Source: a virus (Duplodnaviria > Heunggongvirae > Uroviricota > Caudoviricetes). From it: 55,644 nucleotides of DNA. How positions within the stretch are numbered: position 1 is the first letter of the stretch; the number at the start of each line of letters is the position of its first letter. Under the pieces are notes generated by a model, which was not told the DNA's origin, did no database searches, and was given only the letters and a program-made list of their open reading frames with translations. Shown in pieces: positions 12,195 through 31,217 of this stretch. Where the stretch lies: the IMG/VR virus record IMGVR_UViG_2537561830_000005. One strand, written 5' to 3'. Made by a program: the position numbers and the translations under genes.

Positions 12195-14198
12195 ATGATT
12201 ATGAGTGAAAATGATACAACCCCAAAGAAGTCTACAAGCCAGATTAACAAAGCGGTATTCTTTACATCTGCTTTGCTAATTTTCCTTCTTGTCGCCTTTG
12301 CCGCCGTATTCCCGGATGTCGCCGACAAAAATTTTAAACTACTTCAGCAACAAATCTTCACGAATGCCAGCTGGTTCTACATACTTGCTGTGGCCCTGAT
12401 TTTACTGAGCGTCACGTTCCTTGGACTCTCACGTTACGGTGATATAAAGCTGGGCCCAGACCATGCGCAGCCTGATTTCAGCTACCACTCCTGGTTCGCG
12501 ATGCTTTTTTCGGCAGGGATGGGGATCGGCCTGATGTTCTTTGGCGTTGCCGAACCTGTGATGCATTATCTTTCGCCACCTGTCGGCACTCCAGAGACCG
12601 TTGCGGCAGCGAAGGAAGCCATGCGCCTGACGTTCTTCCACTGGGGTCTGCACGCATGGGCAATTTATGCCATCGTGGCGCTGATTCTGGCCTTTTTCAG
12701 TTACCGTCACGGTCTGCCTTTAACGCTGCGTTCTGCGCTCTATCCCATTATCGGCGATCGCATTTACGGGCCTATAGGCCACGCGGTTGATATCTTCGCC
12801 GTGATAGGCACTGTCTTTGGCGTTGCAACATCGCTGGGTTACGGTGTATTGCAGGTGAATGCCGGTTTGAACCATCTTTTCGGCGTGCCCATCAATGAAA
12901 CGGTACAGGTCATTTTGATCGTGGTCATCACGGGGTTAGCGACGATTTCGGTGGTGTCCGGCCTGGACAAGGGAATACGCATCCTGTCTGAGCTTAATCT
13001 GGGCCTGGCGGTGTTGCTCCTGGCGCTGGTCTTGTGCCTGGGTCCCACTGTGCTTCTGCTGAAGTCATTTGTGGAAAATACGGGTGGTTATCTGTCGGAA
13101 CTGGTGAGTAAAACGTTCAACCTTTACGCGTATGAACCCAAGTCGAGCAACTGGCTGGGGGGCTGGACATTATTATACTGGGGATGGTGGCTTTCATGGT
13201 CGCCGTTTGTAGGTATGTTCATTGCACGCGTTTCCCGCGGCAGGACAATTCGTGAGTTCGTGACTGGCGTGTTGTTTGTTCCCGCCGGCTTTACGCTCAT
13301 GTGGATGACGGTGTTTGGAAACAGCGCCATCTATCTCATCATGAACCAGGGCGCCACTGACCTCGCCAATACCGTTCAGCAGGATGTTGCGCTTGCCCTG
13401 TTTAATTTCCTGGAGCATTTCCCGTTCTCTTCCGTGCTGTCATTCATTGCAATGGCGATGGTCATCGTCTTCTTTGTAACGTCTGCTGATTCGGGGGCAA
13501 TGGTTGTGGATACTCTGGCATCAGGTGGGGTGGCAAACACGCCCGTCTGGCAGCGAATTTTCTGGGCATCGCTCATGGGCGTTGTTGCTATTGCCCTGCT
13601 GATCGCAGGGGGGCTGAGTGCGTTGCAAACCGTAACGATAGCGAGTGCATTGCCCTTCTCAGTTATCTTATTAATATCCATATACGGACTGTTAAAAGCC
13701 CTGCGTCGGGATTTGACCAAGCGTGAAAGCCTTAGCATGGCGACTATTGCTCCTACGGCTGCACGTAACCCAATTCCCTGGCAGAGAAGGTTACGCAATA
13801 TCGCGTATTTGCCGAAGCGCTCTCTTGTGAAACGTTTTATGGACGACATTATCCAACCCGCCATGACGCTGGTTCAGGAGGAACTTAACAAGCAGGGAAC
13901 GATAAGCCACATCAGTGACGCCGCCGAGGATCGTATTCGCCTTGAAGTCGATTTGGGCAACGAGCTGAATTATATATATGAAGTGAGGCTTCGCGGGTAT
14001 AACTCACCGACCTTCGCGCTCGCTGCGCTGGATAATGATGAGCAGCAGAGTGAACAACATCGATATTATCGCGCTGAAGTCTATCTCAAAGAGGGCGGCC
14101 AAAATTATGATGTAATGGGCTGGAATCAGGAACAGCTGATTAATGACATACTGGACCAGTACGAAAAACACCTGCACTTCCTGCATCTGGTTCGTTAA
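12195..14198 (+). CDS. BCCT-family transporter, BetT-like with long C-terminal domain
   Basis: 667-aa ORF with the BCCT tryptophan-rich signature (WTLLYWGWWLSWSPFVG) and strong resemblance to E. coli BetT. Confidence 0.9.
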   Translation: MIMSENDTTPKKSTSQINKAVFFTSALLIFLLVAFAAVFPDVADKNFKLLQQQIFTNASWFYILAVALILLSVTFLGLSRYGDIKLGPDHAQPDFSYHSWFAMLFSAGMGIGLMFFGVAEPVMHYLSPPVGTPETVAAAKEAMRLTFFHWGLHAWAIYAIVALILAFFSYRHGLPLTLRSALYPIIGDRIYGPIGHAVDIFAVIGTVFGVATSLGYGVLQVNAGLNHLFGVPINETVQVILIVVITGLATISVVSGLDKGIRILSELNLGLAVLLLALVLCLGPTVLLLKSFVENTGGYLSELVSKTFNLYAYEPKSSNWLGGWTLLYWGWWLSWSPFVGMFIARVSRGRTIREFVTGVLFVPAGFTLMWMTVFGNSAIYLIMNQGATDLANTVQQDVALALFNFLEHFPFSSVLSFIAMAMVIVFFVTSADSGAMVVDTLASGGVANTPVWQRIFWASLMGVVAIALLIAGGLSALQTVTIASALPFSVILLISIYGLLKALRRDLTKRESLSMATIAPTAARNPIPWQRRLRNIAYLPKRSLVKRFMDDIIQPAMTLVQEELNKQGTISHISDAAEDRIRLEVDLGNELNYIYEVRLRGYNSPTFALAALDNDEQQSEQHRYYRAEVYLKEGGQNYDVMGWNQEQLINDILDQYEKHLHFLHLVR

Positions 14199-14206
14199 CA
14201 GCAACA

Positions 14207-14233
14207 TGCCGCCACAGAGGCGGCATTTATTTA
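14207..14233 (+). terminator. rho-independent terminator after the BCCT gene
   Basis: Hairpin TGCCGCC-ACAGA-GGCGGCA followed by a T-rich run. Confidence 0.55.
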
Positions 14234-14246
14234 TCCCGGCTGCAAT

Positions 14247-15539
14247 ATGAGGGAATGCAGAATGATTTCACGCTGGAAATGGATGCTGAAGCAGACATTT
14301 AAAAAACTATGGTTCAGGGCAACGTTATTCGCAATTGTCGCAATAATAACGGCCCTTTTATCAATTCTTTTTAAATCAATGATACCTGAGTCGGTTTCCG
14401 TGAAGGTTGGTGCGGAAGCAGTCGATAACATTCTGAACATACTGGCATCGAGTATGCTGGCAGTGACCACATTTTCGCTGAGCATCATGGTCACAGCCTA
14501 CGGTTCAGCCACTACTAATGTGACTCCCAGAGCTACTCGTTTAGTTGTTGAAGACGTCACCACACAAAATGTACTGGCCACCTTCATCGGTTCTTTTCTC
14601 TTCAGTCTGGTAGGGATTATTGCCCTCAATATGGGAGCTTATGGAGAAAGGGGGAGAGTCATTTTATTCATTGTAACACTGGTTGTCATTGCCTTAATCC
14701 TCATCACATTGCTTCGCTGGATACAGCATTTGACCTCTCTGGGGAGGGTTGGTGAGACAACGGCAAAAGTAGAACAGGCGGCCATCGAAACATTTATTGC
14801 GAGAGCAAGAAATCCCTGTCTCGGCGGATATCCATGGCTTGAGAACAATGAACAGCCGAAAGGAACGGTTGCAGTTTATCCGAAAAAGATTGGCTATATT
14901 GAATATGTTGATATGGTGAAACTCAGCAAGCTGCTGACCAATGATCCCCGTCATGTATACCTCGTGGCGCAGCCGGGCAGTTTCATACATCCGTCCACGC
15001 CAGTTTTGTACCTGAGTCAGGGCCAGGAGTCATCAATCAGCACCGATTTACTTGAGACGATTATTGTCTCGGATGTACGTTCATTTGCTCAGGACCCCCG
15101 ATTTTGTCTTAGCGTCATGGCCGAAATAGCCTGCCGAGCCCTTTCCCCCGCAGTGAACGATCCTGGAACCGCCATTGATGTCATTGGCAGAGGTGTACGT
15201 ATACTTTCCGCTTACGCGCAGAATAAATCTGATGAAATAGAAGTGAAATATCCTTCTGTACATGTTGCACCACTTCAGAATAACGATCTACTTGAAGACT
15301 TTTTCTCACCTGTTGCGCGCGATGGTGCCAGTATGAGGGAAATTCAGATAAGGGTACTTAAAGGACTGTCGATGCTGAGTAAGGGTTGGCCTGGAATTTT
15401 TGCTGAAGCCGCACAAACCCTAGCATTTGAAACATTAGAGCATGCTACTCGTGCTGACCATATAGATTCTGACAGATATCTAATAAAATCAATTTATTAT
15501 AATTTATTTAGTGGCGAAGATTCTAATAAAAAACCATAG
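14247..15539 (+). CDS. membrane protein with N-terminal TM helices and C-terminal soluble domain (possibly DUF2254)
   Basis: 430-aa ORF; hydrophobic segments in the first ~160 aa; alternative ATG at 14262; family name is tentative. Confidence 0.7.
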   Translation: MRECRMISRWKWMLKQTFKKLWFRATLFAIVAIITALLSILFKSMIPESVSVKVGAEAVDNILNILASSMLAVTTFSLSIMVTAYGSATTNVTPRATRLVVEDVTTQNVLATFIGSFLFSLVGIIALNMGAYGERGRVILFIVTLVVIALILITLLRWIQHLTSLGRVGETTAKVEQAAIETFIARARNPCLGGYPWLENNEQPKGTVAVYPKKIGYIEYVDMVKLSKLLTNDPRHVYLVAQPGSFIHPSTPVLYLSQGQESSISTDLLETIIVSDVRSFAQDPRFCLSVMAEIACRALSPAVNDPGTAIDVIGRGVRILSAYAQNKSDEIEVKYPSVHVAPLQNNDLLEDFFSPVARDGASMREIQIRVLKGLSMLSKGWPGIFAEAAQTLAFETLEHATRADHIDSDRYLIKSIYYNLFSGEDSNKKP

Positions 15540-15601
15540 TTGCGGAGCAAGCGATACGGTTGTTGGCAAGTCAAGGGCAAAGCATTCGCGTGAGAGTGGG
15601 C

Positions 15602-15625
15602 GTCTGCTTTGTGCCAGAAGCGGAC
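15602..15625. repeat. 24-bp imperfect palindrome GTCTGCTTTGTGCCAGAAGCGGAC (copy 2)
   Basis: Lies between the convergent ends of the membrane-protein and LysR genes; a looser hairpin GTCCGCT-N10-AGCGGAC sits at 18668-18691. Confidence 0.4.
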
Positions 15626-15669
15626 ATACGTAACTTATGATACGCATCGCCAATCATCCGTTTCAAACA

Positions 15670-16551
15670 TCAACGCGGAAACGTTTTAAGAATGTAATCC
15701 CGAACATAGGCGGTTCGGCTGTTATTAGCCGTCCTTTTGTTCCAGACCAGATAAAGATGATTAGTCGGAGCGAGGTCTGCAGGTGTCACTGAAATCAGGC
15801 GACCACTTTTCAGGTCATTGTCACAGTGATAATCCGGCAGCACTGTCCACCCGTGGCCGTCACAGACCAAGTCGCGGATAATACGTAAATCCGGAATGGT
15901 GAATGTAGCCTGCATCTCAGGGGCTCTCTGAAACATGGAGGCCCAGAGCGCTCTAATCAGTGGCAACTCTTCGTCATAAGCAATCAGCGGTAATGAGGCA
16001 AGCGTTTCAGCACCAGGTTCTGATCCGATGATCTCTGACATGGCGGGAGCATGAACAAGGAGCATGCGTTCAGTCAGTAGATGTGCATAGCCGTACAGAC
16101 GGTCATCAGGCATAGATGCGGTAACAGCGAGATCGGCGCTCCCGTCATGCAAAAGGGAATAAATACGTTGCTTATTGCCGGTATGAAAGCGTAGGCGATA
16201 CCCCTCCTTCATTAGTGGAGCCATTACTGTCCCAAGCCGGGAATGAATAAAATCTGGCGGTCCTGCCAGATTAATTGTTCCCCCACGTACAGAGCCTGAC
16301 CGGAAAGAGGACAGCTTTTCTTCCAGACCATCAATGAAGGGTGAAACTGAGCGGGCAAGCTCATCCGCAGCTTCGGTTGCCGTCACGCCTCTGGCCTGCC
16401 TGATAAACAGACGCTTACCAACCAGAGTCTCAAGAGACTGGATATGCTGTGACGCCGCGGGCTGAGTGATGCCCAGTAGTTCTGCCGCCTTTGAAAAGGA
16501 GCCAGAGCGATAGGCCTCAAGAAACGTTCGCAGATGGCTCAGATGGCTCAT
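15670..16551 (-). CDS. LysR-family transcriptional regulator
   Basis: 293-aa ORF with an N-terminal HTH (FSKAAELLGITQPAASQHIQSLE); its ATG overlaps the upstream gene's stop (ATGA). Confidence 0.9.
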   Translation of the reverse strand: MSHLSHLRTFLEAYRSGSFSKAAELLGITQPAASQHIQSLETLVGKRLFIRQARGVTATEAADELARSVSPFIDGLEEKLSSFRSGSVRGGTINLAGPPDFIHSRLGTVMAPLMKEGYRLRFHTGNKQRIYSLLHDGSADLAVTASMPDDRLYGYAHLLTERMLLVHAPAMSEIIGSEPGAETLASLPLIAYDEELPLIRALWASMFQRAPEMQATFTIPDLRIIRDLVCDGHGWTVLPDYHCDNDLKSGRLISVTPADLAPTNHLYLVWNKRTANNSRTAYVRDYILKTFPR

Positions 16552-17240
16552 AGTGAAGCGCCTCGCTGATGAAGTTTATCGTTACAGGGAGCCTCATGCA
16601 GAGCAAGGGCCAGTTCACTCACGTAATCATCCCGTATTCCCAACGCACCCAGAGTGGCCTGCAGTTTCCATACATAATCTGCATTCGTGCCAATGTCTCC
16701 ACGGGCAGATGCGATGCTCAACGCTACGGTCGCTGTAAGATTGTCCTGTTCATAATGCGGATGCAGTCTGTCTGATACGAAAGCCAGCGCCTGAATTTCC
16801 TTACCGTTTCCTAGCGAAACGTCTGCCCAGACCGGACGGTAAAGACCGGTTATCATCTCGCGCGTCCAGACAATTTCCAGCTCATTAATAAGAGTCGATT
16901 CCGGCAGTCTGAACGCAATACCTTCGGTAATTCCACCTTCGTCGAGCGATAACATCCTGCCGGGGACATCAGGAGTCGCTCGTCCGGATATCAAACGAAT
17001 GCAGAAACTGCGCTGCCATCCTTTCAGACGGGCCCGTTGCATTTCTTCAATCGCCAGCACGGGATTCCACATCAATGACCCGTAGGCAAATATCCAGACA
17101 GGAGCACCCGTCGGGCGCTCCTCCAGAGTAGAGTTCATTGATGCGCGTATTTTTTCAGCGTCCCAGAGCATATTCGCCGGGAGCAGCGCTTCATGCACCC
17201 TGACAAATGTGCCATTAAGCATATTTTCACGGGTAAGCAT
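16548..17240 (-). CDS. ChaC-like gamma-glutamylcyclotransferase
   Basis: 230-aa ORF with the YGSLMWNP motif and overall resemblance to E. coli ChaC. Confidence 0.8.
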   Translation of the reverse strand: MLTRENMLNGTFVRVHEALLPANMLWDAEKIRASMNSTLEERPTGAPVWIFAYGSLMWNPVLAIEEMQRARLKGWQRSFCIRLISGRATPDVPGRMLSLDEGGITEGIAFRLPESTLINELEIVWTREMITGLYRPVWADVSLGNGKEIQALAFVSDRLHPHYEQDNLTATVALSIASARGDIGTNADYVWKLQATLGALGIRDDYVSELALALHEAPCNDKLHQRGASL

Positions 17241-17251
17241 ATAACCTCCCT

Positions 17252-18451
17252 TTACTGGCCTACGATTTTAACCTGTTGAAATTTACGACTGTGGCTGCGA
17301 CGGATTTGTGCAAGCAGCAACAGCAGGCCGAGCAGAGAAACAATCGCACCGCTGATACCGGTATACACGATACCGGCGTGGCTTATAGTAATGCTGCCCA
17401 GTACTGATCCCAGCGCTATACCTGAGTTGAAGCCCGCAATATTCAGGCCGGCAGCAACACCATGCGCATGAGGAGCATGTTGCTCAGCGACACCAATCAG
17501 ACGGGCCTGCAGTGCCGGCACTGCGGCAAATGTCACCATACCCAGTAGCGCAACCAGAATGCCCATGCTCACCGGTGAGGATGACAGCAGCCACATACCA
17601 AGCACGACAACAACAATGCCGCTAATGATGAGTATATTGGCACGATTAACCCCCATGCTGTCGGTAAGTTTCCCACCAAGAATATTACCTACCGCAGCTG
17701 TAATACCGTAAACCAGCATAAACAGACTCACCGTTGCTCCGGTAACCCCTGTCACCTGCGTCAGAATAGGTGCGATAAAGGTGTAATCCGTAAACGAGCC
17801 TGCATACGCCAGCACCGTAACCAGCGCGCCGGCCAGCAACTTACGGTTAAACAGCATGCCGATATTCTGCATTGCTGAGTCACTATGTTCACCGGGCACG
17901 CTGCGTACGGGATCTTTCATACCGAACAACAGTCCAAGGAATCCGAACGCGCCAAAAGCGGCAATAGCGCCGAGAACTGGACGCCATGAGACCACCCCCC
18001 CCAACCATGTACTCAGCGGTACGCCGATTGCCATCGCCAGAGTAAAGCCACCAAATACCACAGCCACCGCTCTGCCTGCTTTACCCGGTCCAGCAAGACG
18101 AGCTGCGGTACTGGATGCCGCAGCCAGAAACAGGCCGTGTCCCAGACCAGCAATGAACCGCGCTAACAGGAGCTGAGGTAATGTGGCTGCAAACGCGGCC
18201 GCCAGACTACCGGCAGTAAACACAACGGCAGTTGTAAGCATTACATTTTTCCGGCTCCAGCTTGCTGTCAGCGCAGACAGTACGGGTGCCGCGAACGTTG
18301 CCCCCAGTGCATAGGTTGTAACCGCTGCCCCGGTCTGCTCCACACCCACACACAACCCCTGAGCCATAACGTCTGTCAGCCCAATGGGGACAAATTCCGC
18401 GAGTCCGAGCGCAAAGGCACTGATAGTAAACACATAAATAACAAATGGCAT
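17252..18451 (-). CDS. MFS transporter, YdhP/AraJ-like
   Basis: 399-aa ORF with ~12 predicted TM segments; first gene of the MFS / ChaC-like / LysR operon. Confidence 0.9.
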   Translation of the reverse strand: MPFVIYVFTISAFALGLAEFVPIGLTDVMAQGLCVGVEQTGAAVTTYALGATFAAPVLSALTASWSRKNVMLTTAVVFTAGSLAAAFAATLPQLLLARFIAGLGHGLFLAAASSTAARLAGPGKAGRAVAVVFGGFTLAMAIGVPLSTWLGGVVSWRPVLGAIAAFGAFGFLGLLFGMKDPVRSVPGEHSDSAMQNIGMLFNRKLLAGALVTVLAYAGSFTDYTFIAPILTQVTGVTGATVSLFMLVYGITAAVGNILGGKLTDSMGVNRANILIISGIVVVVLGMWLLSSSPVSMGILVALLGMVTFAAVPALQARLIGVAEQHAPHAHGVAAGLNIAGFNSGIALGSVLGSITISHAGIVYTGISGAIVSLLGLLLLLAQIRRSHSRKFQQVKIVGQ

Positions 18452-18870
18452 GACTGGCTCCTGATTTAAGTAAGGAGTGCAGTCTGATTTAGAAAAACAG
18501 ATAAATAAAATAATGTAAACTTCAGGCGGGATAAAATTATTTATATCTAAGGCAAAGATTCAATATTCCCACAGCACACAGAAGTTTTCTGTCTTCAGGG
18601 AGAGGAGCTTCGAAAGTTCAGACGAAAAATTCCTGCGGCCCCTTTAAGAGTCAGTTGGCCGGGTTTGGTCCGCTCCTCGCTCAAAGCGGACTAGAAGGTT
18701 AGCTTGCGTCGGACTTGGCGTATTTAAAGAAGTGCTGGTGGTGACTGGTTGTTGTGTTCCATTTCTACAGAACAAAATCACAGAAACTATACCCAATAGT
18801 TATATTGAATCAATGATGAGACAGCCTCATATTTATCAGAACTGGTGTACGTCCAATACAGGAGGTTGTC

Positions 18871-18960
18871 GTGCTGGTTCTCAAATGTGCGCTAGCTATT
18901 GCGGCTGTAATGGCAATTTATTGTCTTGCTGTTGTTCTTATGGAGCGGCTTTCTGATTGA
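18871..18960 (+). CDS. candidate 29-aa hydrophobic small protein
   Basis: AGGAGG at 18860-18865, GTG at 18871; translation MLVLKCALAIAAVMAIYCLAVVLMERLSD; overlaps the Cys/Gly-rich track ORF 18732..18956 in another frame. Confidence 0.25.
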   Translation: MLVLKCALAIAAVMAIYCLAVVLMERLSD

Positions 18961-19174
18961 TTACATACTGGCTAGAAAAAAGGTGTTACCTTGGTTTATC
19001 TTTGTCCGGCAAGGTGCGCTCATTAATCTTAAGTAAATTTATTGCTCAAGTATTCAGATTACTTCTTATGGTTGAAGTCTCCTGTCAATGTAGAACCAAT
19101 ATATTTACAAAAATGAGACCCGTCGGGGATAGCCCTGCCGGGTCTGACTGTTAAAGCATTTTTAATATGATCAT

Positions 19175-19513
19175 CTATTTTTTGGTGCTATAGACTTTTT
19201 CGCCCGAGAAGTCTGGAGCGACCCAAAAGTTAATATTAAACTGAGCATCATCGCTTAGTTCAACACGGTGCCAGTATTGTGGTGGGCTTGTTGCAAAAGC
19301 GCCAGCATTAATGACTACTTTTATCTCCGGTTCAGTAGCATTCTCATCAGTAAAACCATAATATGTTACAGTGCCTTCCATTACGCACAACTGCCCAAAA
19401 ACACCTGCTGCTGTATTATGATGTGTTAATAACGCTGAAGGTACGTTCTCTTTTGTGAAGAACGGAGTTGAGCGTTTGATTACCCAATCTTTAGGAATTC
19501 TCTTGTGTGTCAT
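19175..19513 (-). CDS. YeaR-like DUF1971 protein
   Basis: Product MTHKRIPKDWVIKRSTPFF...; conserved pattern shared with E. coli YeaR (RSTPF..., FNI.F.VAP); GAGGTGG RBS. Confidence 0.8.
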   Translation of the reverse strand: MTHKRIPKDWVIKRSTPFFTKENVPSALLTHHNTAAGVFGQLCVMEGTVTYYGFTDENATEPEIKVVINAGAFATSPPQYWHRVELSDDAQFNINFWVAPDFSGEKVYSTKK

Positions 19514-20326
19514 AACCACCTCATCAAAAACATGCATTATAAATGCGTGTTTTTGATGGTTATGTCAAGCTGTTATGAAACACATAATTGATATGTTGAT
19601 TAGAGGAGAAGATATAATAAATATGGTTGTTTTTCGTATAACTATTTGTTTTACTTTTAGTTTATGCATTCTGTGTGTTAGGAATAAGTTATTAAAGTTT
19701 AATCAAAAAATCTCGATGTAGTCCACATAGATTATTGTTACTGAACCTTATTGTGTGTATTAGTTGTGTTCTGAAATTTCAGCTTAATTATTTATGATGT
19801 ATTTTTTAACGATAAATATTTTCCCAGGATACCTTTACTGTGTATATAAATAAATTATATACACATAAATAATGTAAAGGCGTCCTTTTAGATATATCTT
19901 ATCAAATGTTAATGACTTGAGTGGGAAATATGATTCCAGCAACTTATCATGTGGCTACTTTATAAAAATAATGCCCATATAAAACAACAAGCGAAAAGGA
20001 TTACGGATAAAAAAGGAGCGAGATGTGCGAACTTGTTATTTTCCATGTTTAACCACCTTAAATAATTGATGATGACGGGATGATTGCATCTGTAATGCTT
20101 TTATTGAAATGTTATGATAAAAAAGAACTTTTGCATAACATTAAAATGTAATTTATCTAATCGTTTTTAATAATAAATGTCGTATTTCTATCCTTGTACC
20201 AGCTATTTGATATGTAGTGTTTGTTCATGCTATGTGGGGCTTTACACCATAGCCAGTTTATTTATACTTTATTCGTCAGCCTGAACAACTGGCATCTGCT
20301 GCGCTGCGCCATCGAGAGATTGAGAA

Positions 20327-22798: not shown

Positions 22799-23227
22799 AT
22801 GGGTTTTCGTAGCGCATCAATTCTTACGTTGATTATTAGTGGGATTATTATCGGGTGCACTGATGCTGTATCGACAAATTATCATGACCGTACATCATAT
22901 TACTCCGATAAAGCAATAGAGACACAGTATGTGAGTTCATCTGAACGTACTTCTGATGTTAGTGAGGATATCCGTCTGTATGCCCATCAAATCAAGAGCG
23001 CCATCGAAAAACAGTTCGGGGATGCGAGTAAGTATTCAGGAAAAGAGTGTACACTGAGAATGCATATGGCCCCGAATGGCCTTCTACTGGAGGTTAAAAG
23101 AGAAAGTGGAGACCTCGATTTATGTCGTGAAGCGATGAATGCGATAAAGAATGCTGATATACCTGCCCCCCCTTCGCCGGAAGTATATAAAGTATTTCAA
23201 AATGGGGTGCTGGATTTTAAACCCTGA
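22799..23227 (+). CDS. phage lipoprotein, paralog 1
   Basis: Signal peptide with lipobox IIGC; C-terminal domain shared with paralog 2; GAGGAAAA RBS. Confidence 0.7.
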   Translation: MGFRSASILTLIISGIIIGCTDAVSTNYHDRTSYYSDKAIETQYVSSSERTSDVSEDIRLYAHQIKSAIEKQFGDASKYSGKECTLRMHMAPNGLLLEVKRESGDLDLCREAMNAIKNADIPAPPSPEVYKVFQNGVLDFKP

Positions 23228-23377: not shown

Positions 23378-23773
23378 GTGGGATTAAAGAAAATCGTTAT
23401 GTTGACTTTTTGGGTCGGTTTTGTTGCGGGATGCACACCTTTACACCCTTCAGATTGCCACAAAACTACTGCTACAGGTAGTTGCAGTTCAGGACGCTGG
23501 GATGATCAGGATGAATGGGGGGCGCAAGCGCGGGGAATCAGAGCTGCAATTAATGCCAAACTTGATGAGCCGCATAACTGGAAAGGGAAAAAATGCAGGT
23601 TGCATATGGAATTCTCTCAGGATGGCACGGCGTTAAAAATATCTACCAGTAACGGTGATAAAGCCTATTGCGAAGCGATAAAGTCCGCAGCTCATAAAGC
23701 CAAATTTCCGGCCTTCAACAATCCGGAAGTCTACAGAGATTTTCAGAAATCTGGCTTTGACATGCGAGGTTAG
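23378..23773 (+). CDS. phage lipoprotein, paralog 2
   Basis: GTG start with GAGGAG RBS; lipobox VAGC; C-terminal domain homologous to paralog 1. Confidence 0.7.
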   Translation: MGLKKIVMLTFWVGFVAGCTPLHPSDCHKTTATGSCSSGRWDDQDEWGAQARGIRAAINAKLDEPHNWKGKKCRLHMEFSQDGTALKISTSNGDKAYCEAIKSAAHKAKFPAFNNPEVYRDFQKSGFDMRG

Positions 23774-25198: not shown

Positions 25199-25335
25199 AA
25201 TCTTAACTACAATATGATTCATTTTGATGATTGTTTCATAAGAAACAGTGAAGTAAGATCTAAGAGGAGTTAAATTTTATACAGTATAATCATAATATTG
25301 CAGCAAGGTGGTTATAATTGAAAGAATATTTAGAT

Positions 25336-26793
25336 ATGAATACATCTCATGTAAGAGTTGTTACTCATATGTGTGGGTTCCTGGTTTGGCTCTATAGTCT
25401 TTCAATGTTGCCACCAATGGTTGTAGCATTGTTTTATAAAGAAAAAAGCCTGTTCGTTTTCTTTATAACTTTCGTTATATTTTTTTGCATTGGTGGCGGA
25501 GCGTGGTATACAACTAAGAAATCTGGCATTCAATTACGTACCCGTGATGGGTTTATTATAATTGTAATGTTTTGGATTTTGTTTTCTGTTATTAGTGCAT
25601 TCCCTTTATGGATTGACTCAGAACTTAATTTAACGTTCATTGATGCTCTGTTTGAAGGGGTTTCTGGAATAACAACAACAGGAGCAACTGTAATTGATGA
25701 TGTTAGTTCATTACCTCGGGCATATTTGTACTATCGGTCACAGTTAAATTTTATAGGTGGTTTAGGAGTTATTGTTCTGGCGGTTGCTGTATTGCCATTA
25801 TTGGGTATTGGTGGTGCAAAGCTTTATCAGTCAGAAATGCCGGGGCCATTTAAGGATGACAAACTCACTCCCCGCCTGGCCGATACGTCACGGACACTGT
25901 GGATAACTTATTCTTTATTAGGTATTGCTTGTATTGTCTGTTATAGACTTGCAGGAATGCCTTTGTTTGATGCTATTTGTCACGGGATTTCCACAGTTTC
26001 GCTTGGTGGTTTCTCAACTCATAGCGAGAGTATCGGATATTTTAATAACTATTTGGTTGAGCTGGTGGCTGGTTCTTTTTCCCTGCTATCGGCTTTCAAC
26101 TTCACTCTTTGGTATATTGTTATTAGCAGGAAAACGATAAAACCTTTAATCAGAGATATTGAACTTCGTTTCTTTCTGTTAATAGCCTTAGGGGTGATCA
26201 TTGTTACCTCTTTCCAGGTCTGGCATATAGGTATGTATGACTTGCATGGAAGTTTTATTCATTCGTTTTTTCTTGCCAGCTCCATGCTCACTGATAATGG
26301 TTTAGCTACGCAGGATTATGCAAGTTGGCCCACGCACACGATAGTGTTTTTGCTGTTGTCAAGTTTCTTTGGGGGATGTATAGGTTCAACTTGTGGTGGA
26401 ATTAAGTCACTTCGATTTCTTATACTTTTCAAACAAAGCAAACACGAGATAAATCAGCTTTCTCATCCCAGAGCGTTGTTGAGTGTAAATGTAGGAGGGA
26501 AGATAGTTACAGATCGTGTAATGAGGTCTGTATGGAGTTTCTTTTTTCTTTATACTCTCTTCACGGTGTTTTTTATACTGGTGTTAAATGGTATGGGATA
26601 TGATTTTCTTACATCATTTGCAACAGTGGCTGCATGTATTAATAATATGGGATTAGGTTTTGGGGCTACTGCATCGTCATTCGGAGTGCTTAATGACATT
26701 GCAAAATGTTTAATGTGCATAGCTATGATTCTTGGTCGCCTTGAAATTTATCCTGTTATTATATTGTTTTCAGGTTTTTTTTGGCGCTCCTAA
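25336..26793 (+). CDS. trkG: Trk-system potassium uptake protein TrkG
   Basis: Product MNTSHVRVVTHMCGFLVWLYS... recalled as K-12 TrkG (a Rac gene); AT-rich coding sequence. Confidence 0.9.
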   Translation: MNTSHVRVVTHMCGFLVWLYSLSMLPPMVVALFYKEKSLFVFFITFVIFFCIGGGAWYTTKKSGIQLRTRDGFIIIVMFWILFSVISAFPLWIDSELNLTFIDALFEGVSGITTTGATVIDDVSSLPRAYLYYRSQLNFIGGLGVIVLAVAVLPLLGIGGAKLYQSEMPGPFKDDKLTPRLADTSRTLWITYSLLGIACIVCYRLAGMPLFDAICHGISTVSLGGFSTHSESIGYFNNYLVELVAGSFSLLSAFNFTLWYIVISRKTIKPLIRDIELRFFLLIALGVIIVTSFQVWHIGMYDLHGSFIHSFFLASSMLTDNGLATQDYASWPTHTIVFLLLSSFFGGCIGSTCGGIKSLRFLILFKQSKHEINQLSHPRALLSVNVGGKIVTDRVMRSVWSFFFLYTLFTVFFILVLNGMGYDFLTSFATVAACINNMGLGFGATASSFGVLNDIAKCLMCIAMILGRLEIYPVIILFSGFFWRS

Positions 26794-26930
26794 TATATGG
26801 CTGATTTATAATTGTGAGTTTAATATTATGTTGACTCACTCATTGATCCAATACCTAACTTTACCAGCAACCCCTCCGTCCCCAGTAGCACTGGCTGCTG
26901 GGGTGCGTTTTATTCATAAAGCAAGGCTGT

Positions 26931-27725
26931 ATGAGCGAGAAATTAAAGATAGTCTATCGCCCATTACAAGAATTGTCACCGTATGCGCACAACGCCAGGA
27001 CGCACAGCCCTGAGCAGGTGGCACAACTGGTAGAAAGTATTAAGCAATTCGGCTGGACTAATCCGGTGCTGATTGACGAAAAGGGCGAAATTATTGCGGG
27101 TCACGGTCGTGTTATGGCGGCTGAAATGCTCAAAATGGATTCTGTTCCGGTCATTGTTCTGTCTGGCCTGACGGATGAGCAGAAAAAGGCGTACCGCCTG
27201 GCAGATAATCGCCTGCCGATGAATGCTGGCTGGGATGAAGATCTGTTGCGGATGGAGCTGTCGGACCTAATCAATGCTGATTTTGATGTCTCCCTGACAG
27301 GCTTCATCCCGACAGAAATTGATGAACTGTTGACGGATGTTTTGCCCGGTACAGGAAATGAGGAGGAGCCGTATACGACGAAAATTGATACGCCTGTTTA
27401 TGAGCCGTCGGGCGGTAAACCGGATATCAGTGAACTGTACGACGATACGAAAACTCAGGAGCTGATCAGCCGGATACGTTCGGCGTCCCTTGATCCTGAT
27501 ATTGAGAAATTCCTCCTGTGTGCGGCAGAACGTCACACAGTGTTTAATTTCAGCAGAATTGCGGACTATTACGCTCATGCCCCCGCTGAAATTCAGTGCC
27601 TTTTCGAGGAGTCGGCGCTGGTGATCATTGATTATCAGCAGGCTATTGAAAATGGATTTGTCCGAATGACGCAGCGCATGGTGGAGATCATGCATGGCGG
27701 GGAGGAGGAGGAGGAATATGCGTGA
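26931..27725 (+). CDS. ParB-like nuclease domain protein
   Basis: 264-aa ORF with ParB/Srx-type motifs (GHGRVMAA, YRLADN); ends in an acidic EEEEEY tail; stop overlaps the next ATG. Confidence 0.75.
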   Translation: MSEKLKIVYRPLQELSPYAHNARTHSPEQVAQLVESIKQFGWTNPVLIDEKGEIIAGHGRVMAAEMLKMDSVPVIVLSGLTDEQKKAYRLADNRLPMNAGWDEDLLRMELSDLINADFDVSLTGFIPTEIDELLTDVLPGTGNEEEPYTTKIDTPVYEPSGGKPDISELYDDTKTQELISRIRSASLDPDIEKFLLCAAERHTVFNFSRIADYYAHAPAEIQCLFEESALVIIDYQQAIENGFVRMTQRMVEIMHGGEEEEEYA

Positions 27726-28650
27726 TGATTTTTGCGCCTTTATTCTGACTCACGGGCGACCGGACAAAGTTCTGACTTACCGGACGTTGCGTCGTGCTGG
27801 CTATACCGGGAAAATTTTTATCGTTGTTGATGATGAAGATAAGACACGGCATCAGTACATGGCTGAATTTGGTGAACAGGTGCTGGTATTTTCCAAAGCC
27901 GATATTGCCAGTCGTTTTGACGAAGCCGATAATTTTGGTGATCGCCGCTCAATTTTTTACGCCCGTAATGCCTGTTTCGACCTGGCAAAACTGGTCGGGT
28001 GTAAATACTTCATTCAGCTCGATGATGATTATCACGAGTTCCAGTTTCGGGTGGATCGCAACTATGACCAGGCCTATTTCCCGATAAGGAAACTGGATGC
28101 GATCCTTTCTGAAATGCTGGCGTATTACGAATCAATACCCGCGCTTTCCATCGCTATGTCGCAGGGCGGGGATTTTCTTGGTGACAATGGCGGCCATGCT
28201 TCGTGGGTGAAACGCAAGGCAATGAACAGCTTTATCTGTTCGGTTGATCGACCGTTCTCATTCATGGGGCGCATTAACGAGGATGTGAATACGTACACGA
28301 ATCTCGGTCGCTGTGGTGAATTGTTTATGACGATCGGTGCTGTCCAGTTAGGGCAGAAACAGACGCAGAAAAACAGCGGCGGAATGACCGAGCTGTATCT
28401 GGATTCCGGAACCTACGTTAAAAGTTTTTACTCCGTCATGTATTCGCCGTCGTGCGTAAAAATCTCACTGATGGGTGCCAGCCATAAACGCATTCACCAT
28501 CAGGTCACCTGGAACAACGCTGCAGTAAAAATCCTTCACGAAAAATACAGGAAGAAGACACCCTGCATATCAATGGGGGTGACAAATGATTCCGTATTCG
28601 AAAGTCGAGTCTCTGGCAGCGTGCCGGATGACTGCACAACAAATCGCTGA
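27718..28650 (+). CDS. GT-A-fold glycosyltransferase-like protein
   Basis: ATG at 27718 after a GGAGGAGGAGGAGGAA RBS; GT2-like motifs FILTHGRPD, IVVDDED and IQLDDDY; no TM segment. Confidence 0.65.
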   Translation: MRDDFCAFILTHGRPDKVLTYRTLRRAGYTGKIFIVVDDEDKTRHQYMAEFGEQVLVFSKADIASRFDEADNFGDRRSIFYARNACFDLAKLVGCKYFIQLDDDYHEFQFRVDRNYDQAYFPIRKLDAILSEMLAYYESIPALSIAMSQGGDFLGDNGGHASWVKRKAMNSFICSVDRPFSFMGRINEDVNTYTNLGRCGELFMTIGAVQLGQKQTQKNSGGMTELYLDSGTYVKSFYSVMYSPSCVKISLMGASHKRIHHQVTWNNAAVKILHEKYRKKTPCISMGVTNDSVFESRVSGSVPDDCTTNR

Positions 28651-28837
28651 CGTTCTGGATGTTGATCTGAACCGACTGAAAGAAAATCGGGAAGCAATGA
28701 CAGATTTTTATGCGGCCATCCGTAAGGGCAGAGCGAAAGGTGAAGCCGAGTTACGAGCGGCATTGTTTAAGCTTGCCAGAAAAGGGGATGCCTTTGCTCT
28801 GCGCGAACTACTCAGGGTGGATAAAAATCAGGACTAA
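28586..28837 (+). CDS. small putative DNA-binding protein upstream of terminase
   Basis: 83-aa ORF overlapping the glycosyltransferase-like gene's 3' end in another frame. Confidence 0.4.
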   Translation: MIPYSKVESLAACRMTAQQIADVLDVDLNRLKENREAMTDFYAAIRKGRAKGEAELRAALFKLARKGDAFALRELLRVDKNQD

Positions 28838-28840
28838 CTG

Positions 28841-29935
28841 ATGAGCAGACCGGACTGGGGGGCGTTGCAGCAGGAGTATATTGCTGAATACACCCGCTCC
28901 GGTATATCTCCGGTGGCATGGTGTGAAGCAAGGGGACTGAACTACGCAACAGCCCGTCGTTACATCAAAAAAACTCCGAAAAATGCGCAGAAAGAAATGC
29001 GCAAAACTGCGCAAAAAAGTGCGCGAAAAAAAACTGCGCAGACTGCGCAAAGGCAGAACAGAAAATCTCAGAAAAAAAAGGCTGTATCCGATGCACTCCT
29101 GATTGAGGGGGACACGGAAGAAATTTCGTTCTGCCCCGATGAATTCGGTATTTCTGACCAGCAGGCAAAATTCGCCATGTTGGTTGCTCAGGGGAAAAAG
29201 CCGACAGAGGCATACCGACTGGCTGGTTATGAGGGGCAAGGTGCGACAGCTAACAGCAACGCCAGCCGTATGCTTAGAAATGCCAGGGTTTATCGTGCTA
29301 TCAGCTACTTCCGCAATCAGTACCAGAAACGCTATACCGCAGACCTGGATTTACTGGTGAGCCAGTTGATGGCCATTGTCCAGGCCGACCCCAATCAGTT
29401 GGCACAATTTCGCCGTGTTAACTGCCGTTATTGCTGGGGCGAGAATCATCTCTACCAGTGGCGTGATATTGCAGAATTCGATAAGGCTGCGGCACAGGCC
29501 TCCAGAGATGGTAAACCCGAGCCGGAATATGGAGGCCTCGGCTTTGTTGATAACGCCATACCCAATCCTGATTGCCCGAAGTGCTGCGGTGAGGGAACAG
29601 GACAGCTTTATATGGCTGATACCACACTGCTTGATGGGGATGCGCGGCAATTATATGCAGGGTCAAAGCTCGGAAAATACGGTGTTGAGATCCTGCTGGA
29701 GGATAAGGCTGCCGCCCGGCGTGAATTGTTGCGTTTGCTTTCTGCTGGCGGGGCATTATGTGCAGATAAGCGGCTACAGGAACTGGAAATTGAACGGCGC
29801 AGAATAGAGAACCAGAAGCTGCGCAAAGAGATCGAAACGGTGGAGGATAATGAACATCCCCAGCCTGTGGCGATCAATATTAATGTGGTTGATGCCAGAT
29901 TAAGGAGTGATGAAGATGATCTCTCCGACGCTTAA
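28841..29935 (+). CDS. putative terminase small subunit (HTH N-terminus, Cys-rich C-terminus)
   Basis: 364-aa ORF immediately upstream of and overlapping the large terminase; motifs CRYCWG and CPKCCGEG. Confidence 0.55.
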   Translation: MSRPDWGALQQEYIAEYTRSGISPVAWCEARGLNYATARRYIKKTPKNAQKEMRKTAQKSARKKTAQTAQRQNRKSQKKKAVSDALLIEGDTEEISFCPDEFGISDQQAKFAMLVAQGKKPTEAYRLAGYEGQGATANSNASRMLRNARVYRAISYFRNQYQKRYTADLDLLVSQLMAIVQADPNQLAQFRRVNCRYCWGENHLYQWRDIAEFDKAAAQASRDGKPEPEYGGLGFVDNAIPNPDCPKCCGEGTGQLYMADTTLLDGDARQLYAGSKLGKYGVEILLEDKAAARRELLRLLSAGGALCADKRLQELEIERRRIENQKLRKEIETVEDNEHPQPVAININVVDARLRSDEDDLSDA

Positions 29936-31217
29936 TGTGCCTCAGGCGCGATTTCTTTCAATGCCCCATAAATTTAAAGCCTATATTGCTGGTTTTGGCT
30001 CGGGCAAAACATGGGTTGGGTGTGGCGGCATATGCAAGGGGATTTGGGAGCATCCAGGTATAAATCAGGGATATTTTGCGCCAACGTATCCCCAAATTCG
30101 CGATATTTTTTACCCTACAGTGGAAGAAGTTGCTGCTGACTGGGGATTGAACGTAAAAATTAATGAGGGAAATAAAGAGGTTCACTTTTATTACGGACGC
30201 CAGTATCGGGGAACCACTATCTGCAGATCGATGGAGAAGCCACAAACGATCGTCGGTTTCAAAATTGGTAATGCGCTGGTGGATGAACTGGACATTTTGC
30301 CGAAGGAAAAAGCCAGAACGGCGTGGCGCAAGATAATTGCGCGTATGCGTTATAAGATTGATGGACTTCGCAACGGTATTGACGTTACAACCACGCCGGA
30401 AGGATTCAAATTTGTCTACGAGCAGTTTGTTAAAGCCGTGCGTGAAAAAACAGATCTGGCCTCACTGTATGGTCTGGTGCAGGCATCTACTTTCGATAAT
30501 GAAAAGAACCTGCCAGCAGATTACATTCCTTCACTTCTTGAATCATACCCTCCAGAGCTGATTAAAGCCTATCTTCTAGGACGGTTTACTAACCTGACAA
30601 GTGGTACTGTTTACCATCAGTTTGACCGGAAACTGAATAATTGCGAAGAAGTGGAGCAGCCAGGGGAGCCGATTTATATTGGGATGGATTTTAACGTTGG
30701 AAAGATGGCGGGAATCGTCCATGTGCTGCGTTTGGGGCTTCCATGTGCGGTAACTGAAATCATCAATGCCTACGATACGCCGGATATGATCCGCCTCATT
30801 AAAGAACGCTTCTGGCTGTATGACGGGCATGATTACCGGAAAGTGAGGGAGATTTATATTTATCCAGATGCTTCCGGAGATTCCAGAAAATCAAGTAACG
30901 CAAGTACGACGGATATAGCCCAGCTTAAGCAGGCAGGTTTTAACGTTGTGGTGAACAGCTCGAACCCGCCAGTAAAAGATCGCGTTAACTCAATGAATGC
31001 AATGTTCTGCAATGCCAATGGTGAGCGTCGCTATAAAGTTAATGTGAAGCGTTGTCCGGTATATGCCGAATCTCTGGAGCAACAGGTCTGGGATGATAAG
31101 GGGGAGCCTGATAAAAAATCTGGCAATGATCACCCGAATGATGCCGGAGGTTATTTCATCGTTAAGCAATTCCCTATTGTCAAACCGACCGGAAGAGTCA
31201 CATCACTTCGGATTTAA
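29916..31217 (+). CDS. terminase large subunit
   Basis: Walker A GFGSGKT near the N-terminus; start taken at ATG 29916, 9 nt after TAAGGAG. Confidence 0.85.
   Translation: MISPTLNVPQARFLSMPHKFKAYIAGFGSGKTWVGCGGICKGIWEHPGINQGYFAPTYPQIRDIFYPTVEEVAADWGLNVKINEGNKEVHFYYGRQYRGTTICRSMEKPQTIVGFKIGNALVDELDILPKEKARTAWRKIIARMRYKIDGLRNGIDVTTTPEGFKFVYEQFVKAVREKTDLASLYGLVQASTFDNEKNLPADYIPSLLESYPPELIKAYLLGRFTNLTSGTVYHQFDRKLNNCEEVEQPGEPIYIGMDFNVGKMAGIVHVLRLGLPCAVTEIINAYDTPDMIRLIKERFWLYDGHDYRKVREIYIYPDASGDSRKSSNASTTDIAQLKQAGFNVVVNSSNPPVKDRVNSMNAMFCNANGERRYKVNVKRCPVYAESLEQQVWDDKGEPDKKSGNDHPNDAGGYFIVKQFPIVKPTGRVTSLRI

Follow-up and report, generated by a model that had tools for sequence, protein, structure and literature searches.

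The 55,644-nucleotide (nt) tailed-virus sequence analysed here (IMG/VR record IMGVR_UViG_2537561830_000005, hereafter the window) is a Rac-family lambdoid prophage of Escherichia coli, integrated beside ttcA. Just 5' of its packaging genes lie two overlapping genes, ORF1 and ORF2, which PGAP annotates in identical copies as ynaK, a 'ParB/Srx family N-terminal domain-containing protein', and as a 'GREB1-related protein' (Table 1). A first-pass annotation made from the sequence alone had described a ParB/Srx-fold protein of 264 amino acids (aa) whose stop codon overlaps the start of a 310-aa glycosyltransferase (GT)-like protein. Profile searches of both proteins bore this out, with ORF1 falling in ParB_N and phrog_620 and ORF2 in TAGT and phrog_842, and the position directly before the terminase genes was likewise as described.

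The junction of the two genes reads ATGCGTGA, and the ORF1 stop lies 8 nt inside ORF2. A mechanical ORF list puts the start of ORF2 at 27694; because homologues from many genera all begin MRDDFCAFILTHGRP, we take 27718 as the true start, which gives the 310-aa product. ORF1 ends in GGEEEEEYA, the acidic tail to which the first-pass annotation drew attention. The five glutamates are encoded by GGGAGGAGGAGGAGGAA (27700-27716), and since this purine run looks like an in-frame Shine-Dalgarno sequence for ORF2, the tail may be partly a by-product of translational coupling. No good sigma-70-like promoter was found between the strong terminator-like hairpin upstream and ORF1. Together, the hairpin and the lack of a promoter of their own suggest that ORF1 and ORF2 are carried on the late, Q-antiterminated transcript, co-transcribed with the late genes and probably not expressed on their own in a lysogen.

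Table 1. Features of the ORF1-ORF2 locus (positions in the window)
Feature	Position	Strand	Basis or remark
trkG, TrkH-family potassium transporter (moron)	25318-26793	+	between lysis cassette and ORF1
Terminator-like hairpin, then T-run	26880..26903	+	after trkG; 28 nt 5' of ORF1
ORF1, ParB/Srx-fold protein, 264 aa, acidic (isoelectric point, pI, 4.5)	26931..27725	+	ParB_N, phrog_620
ORF1 residues 1-134, ParB nucleotide-binding domain and short helical extension	26931..27332	+	profiles, structure alignment, AlphaFold2 (AF2)
Linear motif YTTKIDTPVYEP, ORF1 residues 148-159	27372..27407	+	inside AF2-disordered linker
ORF1 residues 170-255, helical C-terminal domain	27438..27695	+	own profile; part always accompanying the transferase
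ORF1-ORF2 junction: GGAGG-rich run, ORF2 ATG at 27718, ORF1 TGA at 27723-27725	27700..27725	+	8-nt overlap
ORF2, soluble GT-A glycosyltransferase of the TAGT family, 310 aa	27718..28650	+	PF20691, phrog_842, AF2, Foldseek
ORF2 signature residue R14	27757-27759	+	alignments
ORF2 signature residues D38-D41	27829-27840	+	alignments
ORF2 residues 102-105, DDDY, DxD metal/nucleotide-sugar motif	28021..28032	+	invariant or near-invariant columns
ORF2 signature residues N187-E188-D189	28276-28284	+	alignments
Small ORF, 83 aa (PGAP: 69 aa)	28586..28837	+	phrog_309, 8.3e-23; resembles middle segment of small terminase subunits
TerS, small terminase subunit, 364 aa	28841..29935	+	Terminase_2
TerL, large terminase subunit	29907..31217	+	Terminase_6N/6C

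ORF2 Is a GT-A Glycosyltransferase of the TAGT Family

ORF2 matched the Pfam family TAGT (PF20691, 'TET-Associated Glycosyltransferase') and not Glycos_transf_2, at 121.6 bits against a cut-off of 27.5 (E 5.5e-35) and over positions 4-205 of the 205 in the profile; the match to phrog_842 reached 1.4e-103, and NCBIfam added nothing. The AF2 model, built on 48 homologues, had a pLDDT of 88 and a pTM of 0.85. Structure prediction had been proposed as a check on the glycosyltransferase fold, and the model does adopt a GT-A fold: a Foldseek search of the PDB returned GT-A enzymes only, with TarP first, followed by GnT-I, SpsA and K4CP, and a search of viral models (BFVD) returned TAGT proteins with template-modelling scores of 0.6-0.87, including a T-even-type beta-glucosyl-HMC-alpha-GT. 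The maximum Kyte-Doolittle mean over 19 residues was 1.08 for ORF2 and 1.25 for ORF1, hence neither protein has a membrane segment. A soluble enzyme of this family, flanked by trkG and terminase genes and with no GtrA/GtrC-like neighbour at the locus, differs from the Gtr-type serotype-conversion enzymes, as the first-pass annotation had argued.

The two motifs on which that annotation relied, IVVDDED and IQLDDDY, occupy residues 35-41 and 99-105. Conservation was assessed in an alignment of 17 sequences (A1), a wider one of 48 (A6) and a set of 32 partner-GT pairs (A5). D38, D41, D102-D104 and Y105 are invariant in A1, and of these only D41 and D102 are fully invariant in A6, where R14 and D189 are invariant as well and D103, D104 and Y105 are almost so. 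For E188, full invariance is confined to the closer relatives in A1, with near-invariance in A5. R14, the DDD triplet and the ED pair reproduce the R...DDD...ED(Y/F) signature reported to be shared by phage GT-A DNA glycosyltransferases and trypanosome JGT (bioRxiv 10.1101/2023.12.21.572611). We propose that ORF2 is a metal-dependent GT-A enzyme using a nucleotide-sugar.

The conserved core comprises residues 1-283; the last ~25 residues are non-conserved and disordered and overlap the next ORF. The core is basic (pI 8.6) whereas ORF1 is acidic, which fits the enzyme, and not ORF1, contacting DNA. Altogether, the transferase subfamily gathers 1,330 representative clusters at E < 1e-3.

ORF1 Carries a ParB Nucleotide-Binding Domain and a Candidate Transferase-Binding Domain

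The match of ORF1 to Pfam ParB_N (PF02195) is marginal (28.9 bits, cut-off 26.3, residues 23-90), and that to phrog_620, 'ParB-like', covers the whole length (1.5e-90). The N-terminal domain has its nearest relatives in the ParB modules that begin phage DNA methyltransferases (phrog_498, 1.2e-50, residues 3-144), and the PADLOC model MTase_II matches residues 10-144 (2.5e-38), through only the ParB part of this type II methyltransferase model. Since the ParB subtype of ORF1 is also found fused to DNA methyltransferases, this domain recurs as a partner of DNA-modifying enzymes.

When aligned with Noc/ParB structures, ORF1 has GHGR (box II, residues 57-60) opposite GERR and DN (box III, residues 92-93) opposite EN. 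The nucleotide-pocket residues N21, S36, G57, G59, R60, D92 and N93 are invariant in the ORF1 family. AF2 divides the protein into segments at residues 1-100 and 103-134, a disordered linker of ~33 residues (137-169) and a helical part (172-255), with a pLDDT of 73-93 for the N-terminal domain. Inside the linker lies a motif with the family pattern Y-[ST]-x-K-[IV]-x-x-P-x-Y-x-P, which is the best-conserved piece of the partner protein; Y148, P155 and Y157 are invariant across 32 diverse partners. The helical C-terminal domain has no significant Pfam match, and at E <=10 Pfam gave chance matches only. Its constant company with the transferase suggests that it is a transferase-binding adaptor.

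The first-pass annotation had called ORF1 a nuclease-domain protein, a description that we do not retain: the ParB_N fold is a nucleoside triphosphate (NTP)-binding clamp module, nothing found points to a nuclease and database names keep the word 'nuclease' for historical reasons. The Pfam matches of ORF1 included no HNH or other nuclease domain, no helix-turn-helix (HTH) domain and no ParB C-terminal domain. TIGR00180 scored 38.5, under its cut-off of 58.45. The prophage annotation holds no ParA, and searches for parS-like repeats or palindromes around ORF1-ORF2 gave short chance matches only. ORF1 is therefore probably neither a nuclease nor a partition protein, and we regard it as a likely adaptor.

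The Two-Gene Module Is Conserved across Phyla

Two initial scans of viral contigs yielded almost exclusively E. coli prophages that were near-identical to one another; the diversity of the module came from a GTDB scan and a search of representative sequences. Taking one genome per GTDB species gave 80 loci, in which ORFs were called and searched with profiles of the N- and C-terminal halves of ORF1; 79 of the loci contained the GT. The hosts were Bacteroidota, Bacillota (Clostridia, Veillonella), Kiritimatiellae, Acidobacteriota, Alphaproteobacteria and Saccharibacteria, together with one metagenome-assembled genome labelled uncultured archaeon, and GT identity across these phyla was 45-60%. 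A partner with the C-terminal domain of ORF1 stands beside the GT in 76 of the 79 loci (E 1e-22 to 1e-45, with a few truncated or split matches to 1e-16). Its stop overlaps the GT start by 1-20 nt in 70 of these 76 (8 nt in 25 loci, 11 nt in 34), which supports the earlier description of the two genes as an operon unit. Outside the variant described below, the N-terminal half of the partner is ParB/Srx-like; it is sometimes too divergent for the profile, with a G[NH]xR motif still visible.

The pair also occurs in cultured viruses: Lactobacillus phages c5, phi jlb1, phiLdb, LL-Ku and Ld17, Nocardia phage NTR1, Vibrio phages of ~191 kb and Haloarcula virus HHTV-2. In the virulent phage c5 (31.8 kb) the ParB-like gene and the GT gene are the first two genes after cos. 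Two unrelated metagenomic phages with HK97-type terminases have a ParB-like gene of ~260 aa that overlaps the TAGT gene, and the pair lies directly 5' of terS. HHTV-2 (NC_021340) is a haloarchaeal tailed virus whose genes 21-22 form the pair, with a GT ~43% identical to that of E. coli, a striking cross-domain conservation for a phage accessory gene.

Among the 108 proteins encoded by the two genes 3' of the GT, ~40 are terminases from at least five families (Terminase_6N 18, Terminase_3 10, T7-type 6, GpA 3 and TerL_ATPase 3). The other downstream genes include radical-SAM/SPASM genes (5 loci), DnaN-like genes (4) and one UDP-galactopyranose mutase gene. The genes 5' of the module vary and encode SSB, VRR-NUC, PolA, N6/N4 DNA methylases and nucleotide-sugar synthesis enzymes.

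Several GT relatives carry a C-terminal class-I S-adenosylmethionine-dependent methyltransferase or a sulfotransferase, or are tandem GTs (P0248; P0251, at L165 8001-9755; P0287, at L164 3418-5190; P0268; P0267). GTs that bear a sulfotransferase or class-I methyltransferase fusion retain the pairing with the partner. These fusions to tailoring domains suggest that the transferred sugar is further modified in some phages. One partner protein has an extra N-terminal region resembling a class-I methyltransferase (VDVGCG motif), followed by the ParB domain, the linker motif and the C-terminal domain (L193 189-1739). Several Clostridia prophages have a radical-SAM gene of the SPASM type between the GT and the small terminase gene (L221 8860-9816, L223 2695-3627, also L222, L238 and L245), the product of which could tailor the sugar or prepare the acceptor. 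The UDP-galactopyranose mutase gene lies beside the module at L228 (3340-4527), and genes for an NAD-dependent epimerase/dehydratase and a CMP-sugar-type cytidylyltransferase lie beside it at the P0268 locus; these neighbours hint at unusual donors, e.g., galactofuranose or nonulosonic-acid-like sugars.

A Variant without the ParB Domain Lies in Replication Gene Clusters

Seven species loci with a complete partner ORF have a short partner of about 130-150 aa that consists of the linker motif and the C-terminal domain and lacks the ParB domain. The variant is found in phages that encode PolA, a family-A DNA polymerase, on contigs of ~66-71 kb where these are long enough to tell; there the adaptor has 129-147 aa, and the cluster stands between PolA and other replisome genes. 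The usual gene order is DnaB, primase, PolA, a first TAGT, the short adaptor, a second TAGT of the ORF2 subfamily and a DnaN-like beta clamp; at L185 and L208 no clamp gene adjoins the GT. Examples with a 132-aa adaptor are L250 (9156-12345) and L251 (9147-12343), and the variant also occurs at L191, L195, L230 and L236. At L230 a small adaptor-like ORF precedes each GT. A few kb from the GT/adaptor/clamp cluster, L251 encodes a protein with a dATP/dGTP diphosphohydrolase N-terminal domain (15623-16159), a family linked to genomes with non-canonical purines.

Of the best 120 matches to a profile built from the short adaptors, 118 were further short proteins. An N-terminal peptide of ~16 aa carries [LMI]F at about residues 3-5 (MKQSELF, MIQKTLF, MSQLF, MRLF) in 93 of 96 non-redundant adaptors, compared with on average 19.8 and at most 32 in shuffled controls and 13 of 576 windows elsewhere in the adaptors. 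The bacterial beta-clamp-binding motif has the consensus QL[SD]LF, and Hda carries such a motif at its N terminus. The xLF peptide resembles the hydrophobic end of this motif, which suggests that the adaptors bind the clamp. As a predicted clamp-docking peptide here replaces the ParB domain, the job of the N-terminal module would be attachment to DNA.

Comparison with Known Modification Systems

The TAGT family and the ParB fold are already known, as are their loose association within DNA-hypermodification clusters and the existence of solitary TAGTs. Trypanosome JGT is a distant relation of the phage enzymes. TAGT was reportedly defined, and ParB commented on, by Iyer et al. in 2013 in NAR. 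The T2/T6 enzyme, beta-glucosyl-HMC-alpha-GT, adds a second glucose to glucosyl-5-hydroxymethylcytosine (PMC13216743), and TET-associated GT-A members glycosylate 5-hydroxymethylcytosine (5hmC) (bioRxiv 10.1101/2023.12.21.572611; PMC8256090). ORF2 resembles them in its full-length Pfam match, its GT-A fold, its R...DDD...ED signature, its phage origin and its place beside DNA-transaction genes. It differs in that its prophage has neither a source of hydroxymethyl-pyrimidines nor an alpha- or beta-GT for a first sugar, and in that its subfamily is distinct, unusually conserved and nearly always coupled to a dedicated partner. Two papers flag solitary TAGT/GT-A genes as unexplained (PMC13216743; bioRxiv 10.1101/2023.12.21.572611); one counts 288 such cases among 753 GT-encoding phage genomes, the other puts them at ~65% of the GT contigs that it mined (GT-A and GT-B), and ORF2 falls among the 'solitary TAGT homologues' that PMC13216743 lists as of unknown function.

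For ORF1, ParB176 offers a parallel in layout. Phage ParB-like proteins are required activators of their cognate thymine dioxygenases on double-stranded DNA (5mYOX176/ParB176; PNAS 2026, PMC13229309), and ParB176-type proteins consist of a nucleotide-binding domain, a short helical segment, a disordered linker of ~50 aa and a C-terminal domain, with no HTH. By this published description ORF1 has the same layout; it keeps the N-x-R, S, GxxR and N pocket positions and likewise adjoins its cognate enzyme. In the dioxygenase system the enzyme modifies DNA post-replicatively, and GT and terminase genes frequently lie nearby. The cognate enzyme of ORF1 is, however, a glycosyltransferase and not a dioxygenase, ORF1 is longer (264 aa versus 194-226 aa), and activation of ORF2 by ORF1 is suggested by analogy. 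The commonest neighbours of phage 5mYOX genes are GTs (31%), ParBs (27%) and terminases (19%) (PMC13229309).

ParB-domain-fused phage DNA methyltransferases (ParB_N + N6_N4_Mtase), which are enriched in prophages (PMC12704722), are closely related to ORF1 over its residues 3-144. In these proteins the enzyme is fused to ParB, whereas ORF2 is separate, translationally coupled and presumably held by the extra adaptor domain. The 2025 survey of the ParB-CTPase fold that reports such fusions makes no mention of glycosyltransferases (PMC12704722). Canonical ParB of ParABS systems shares with ORF1 the N-terminal ParB/Srx fold, the box II arginine and the box III asparagine; ORF1 differs from it in lacking an HTH, ParA and parS-like repeats, in having GHGR for GERR and in its sub-threshold TIGR00180 score.

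T4 alpha-GT, which co-purifies with the T4 clamp gp45 (PMC13216743), offers a second parallel, as a DNA glycosyltransferase linked to a sliding clamp; the variant loci set adaptor, GT and DnaN-like clamp side by side. The T4 enzyme differs in having a GT-B fold, in binding the clamp directly and in acting on 5hmC that was incorporated before replication, whereas in the variant loci binding would go through the xLF adaptor. PMC8256090 attributes to Aravind and co-workers an older suggestion in which ParB guides the DNA-modification machinery at packaging. In the literature searched we found no description of an obligate partner that is coupled in translation and brings an adaptor domain and motif of its own, of a module independent of a hydroxymethyl-pyrimidine source, or of a ParB domain that alternates with an xLF peptide and beta clamp.

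A Proposed Clamp-Tethered Glycosyltransferase and Its Alternatives

We propose, with about even confidence, that ORF1 and ORF2 form a two-protein, clamp-tethered glycosyltransferase that acts late on phage DNA, during replication and packaging. ORF2 would be the catalyst, a metal-dependent GT-A enzyme with a nucleotide-sugar donor. The C-terminal domain of ORF1, together with its YxxK..P.Y.P linker motif, would hold the transferase, and the ParB NTP-binding domain would load or retain the complex on duplex DNA, as a clamp or as an activator. Sugar would be transferred to phage DNA before packaging, and on entering a new host the decorated DNA would withstand restriction or other immunity directed at DNA. 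In relatives, the sugar could be methylated, sulfated, extended or supplied by phage nucleotide-sugar enzymes. In favour of this reading we count the membership of ORF2 in a family whose characterised members glycosylate DNA, the fixed pairing of the two genes, the ParB subtype shared with DNA methyltransferases, the ParB-less variant with its clamp gene, the opposite charge of the two proteins and the DNA-transaction genes around the module (terminases, SSB, VRR-NUC, PolA and methylases). T4 alpha-GT with gp45 and the ParB-activated dioxygenases are the parallels for tethering to a clamp. Among the functions that the first-pass annotation had put forward, DNA glycosylation fits best; for virion glycosylation we found no specific support.

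Several points weigh against this reading, the most serious of which concern the acceptor. To our knowledge, every characterised relative uses a hydroxyl acceptor, i.e., 5hmC, 5-hydroxymethyluracil (5hmU), a sugar on DNA or Ser/Thr (GREB1), and phage DNA glycosylation has so far been found only on 5-hydroxymethyl-pyrimidines. Canonical DNA bases carry no hydroxyl, and we know of no report of a glycosylated base in lambdoid phages. PGAP annotation and Pfam scans of the complete prophage revealed no TET/JBP, C5-methyltransferase or thymidylate-synthase-like hydroxymethylase. No hydroxymethylase-like gene is annotated in phage c5, and ~10 fully Pfam-annotated related contexts contain no hydroxymethyl-pyrimidine source. 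The families listed for 220 neighbour proteins do not include TET_JBP, which leaves at most one match per set, and neither C5-methylase nor thymidylate synthase is among those listed for the upstream neighbours. On the side of tethering, the C-terminal domain of ORF1 folds poorly when modelled alone (low AF2 confidence), and the full QxxLF occurs in only 8 of 96 short adaptors, the conserved glutamine being missing from most. No ParB-GT fusion protein was found either, the long matches being the fusions of GT to class-I methyltransferase or sulfotransferase and the tandem GTs. Moreover, mutations of NTP-binding residues of ParB did not abolish activation of the dioxygenase (PMC13229309), so that a clamp mechanism is unproven even in that system.

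Given relatives that use hydroxyls only and the lack of a source of 5hmC or 5hmU, the pair implies a new acceptor chemistry, a protein acceptor or a dependence on something encoded elsewhere. The first of these would be met if the pair glycosylated canonical, unmodified phage DNA directly, e.g., on an exocyclic amine or a ring nitrogen, with the ParB domain or the clamp-binding adaptor giving processivity, a proposal that we put forward tentatively and consider rather doubtful.

The second, a protein acceptor, we judge unlikely, although it accounts for the missing hydroxymethyl-base source. ORF2 would O-glycosylate its own partner at Y148 or Y157, in a glycogenin-like manner, or another DNA-bound or packaging protein, with ORF1 as substrate or scaffold. 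In eukaryotes, GREB1 has a TAGT-type domain and is reported to attach O-GlcNAc to a protein (PMC7968844), and it is GREB1 to which PGAP relates ORF2. Fusions of the GT to a class-I methyltransferase, a sulfotransferase or a second GT are equally typical of protein glycan synthesis. The best-conserved stretch of the partner is indeed a short peptide containing Tyr, Ser and Thr in a disordered linker, but its Ser/Thr positions are not conserved and only the two tyrosines, the K and the P are. A protein acceptor would also leave unexplained the constant DNA-clamp module of the partner (a ParB domain, or xLF with an adjacent DnaN) and the ParB subtype shared with DNA methyltransferases. A specific packaging protein is an improbable target, since the adjoining terminases come from at least five unrelated families.

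Dependence on something encoded elsewhere would make ORF2 a second-step TAGT whose substrate, either a hydroxymethyl-pyrimidine or a first sugar, would come from a helper phage or from the host, leaving the enzyme idle or conditional in the prophage. The activity of the T2/T6 TAGT on an existing glucose, the two TAGT genes that stand together in the PolA-phage variant and the abundance of GTs, ParBs and terminases around phage 5mYOX genes are consistent with such a role. We nevertheless consider it quite improbable: in the complete small genomes of the Rac-type prophage and phage c5 the single-GT module occurs by itself, TET_JBP does not appear in the neighbour list given above, and the cross-phylum identity of the GT, together with thousands of intact E. 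coli copies, argues for a function selected in place.

Very improbable, finally, is a role for the lysogen or the element, be it defence or superinfection exclusion, a partition or packaging-site function or a moron for envelope glycosylation akin to serotype conversion: the pair adjoins a clear moron, trkG, TarP is a prophage wall-teichoic-acid GlcNAc transferase and ParB folds are found in GmrSD-type defence enzymes, but PADLOC had no match for ORF2 and matched ORF1 only through the ParB domain of a methyltransferase model, membrane segments, GtrA/GtrC-like neighbours, ParA, an HTH domain and parS-like repeats are all missing, the same module serves Gram-negative, Gram-positive and archaeal viruses with unrelated envelopes, and it lies in a late operon without its own promoter or, in virulent c5, directly after cos. 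The lack of a PADLOC match for ORF2 and the late-operon position likewise speak against the defence or counter-defence pair envisaged in the first-pass annotation.

Prophage Setting and Neighbouring Genes

The prophage runs from intR, xisR, recET, kilR and sieB through lysis genes, trkG, ynaK and the GT gene to the terminase, head and tail genes. At least 80% of the window segment 25000-30000 is present in 785 of 5,426 complete E. coli genomes, and the 90% cluster containing the E. coli transferase has 2,693 sequences. The small ORF behind the transferase gene overlaps the non-conserved transferase tail and separates the transferase from TerS. TerS itself is unusually long, and the small ORF upstream may be a split or accessory TerS component.

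Elsewhere in the window, a cargo block between the replication genes and the Q region (12195-19537) is unusual ballast for a lambdoid phage. It contains genes for a BCCT transporter, a DUF2254 membrane protein, a LysR regulator, a ChaC-like gamma-glutamylcyclotransferase and an MFS transporter, together with a truncated TehB-like fragment (19175-19537, minus strand). Two plus-strand genes 5' of the lysis cassette (22799-23227 and 23378-23773) are annotated by PGAP in an identical locus as TolA and TolA C-terminal-domain proteins. We also considered K-12 ydaY as a remnant of the GT gene and rejected it, as the ydaY of PGAP sits among tail genes.

Implications

The locus is very tractable, consisting of two genes in an inducible-type E. 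coli prophage that is present in about one in seven complete E. coli genomes. Should the target prove to be a protein, bacterial viruses would have their first counterpart to GREB1-type protein glycosylation. Should the pair act on DNA, it would reveal either a new acceptor chemistry or a hidden acceptor source, and would add a second enzyme class, after the thymine dioxygenases, that is under ParB-like control. It would also point to a general rule in which DNA-modifying enzymes are tethered to DNA clamps, ParB or beta clamp. Direct glycosylation of canonical bases, if true, would amount to a class of DNA base modification not seen before, the product of a self-sufficient cassette of two genes that temperate phages of E. 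coli, Salmonella, Lactobacillus, Bacteroides, Clostridia and haloarchaea commonly carry. Such DNA modification would bear on evasion of restriction and CRISPR, on targeting by type IV restriction, on sequencing artefacts in prophage DNA and on tools for DNA labelling.

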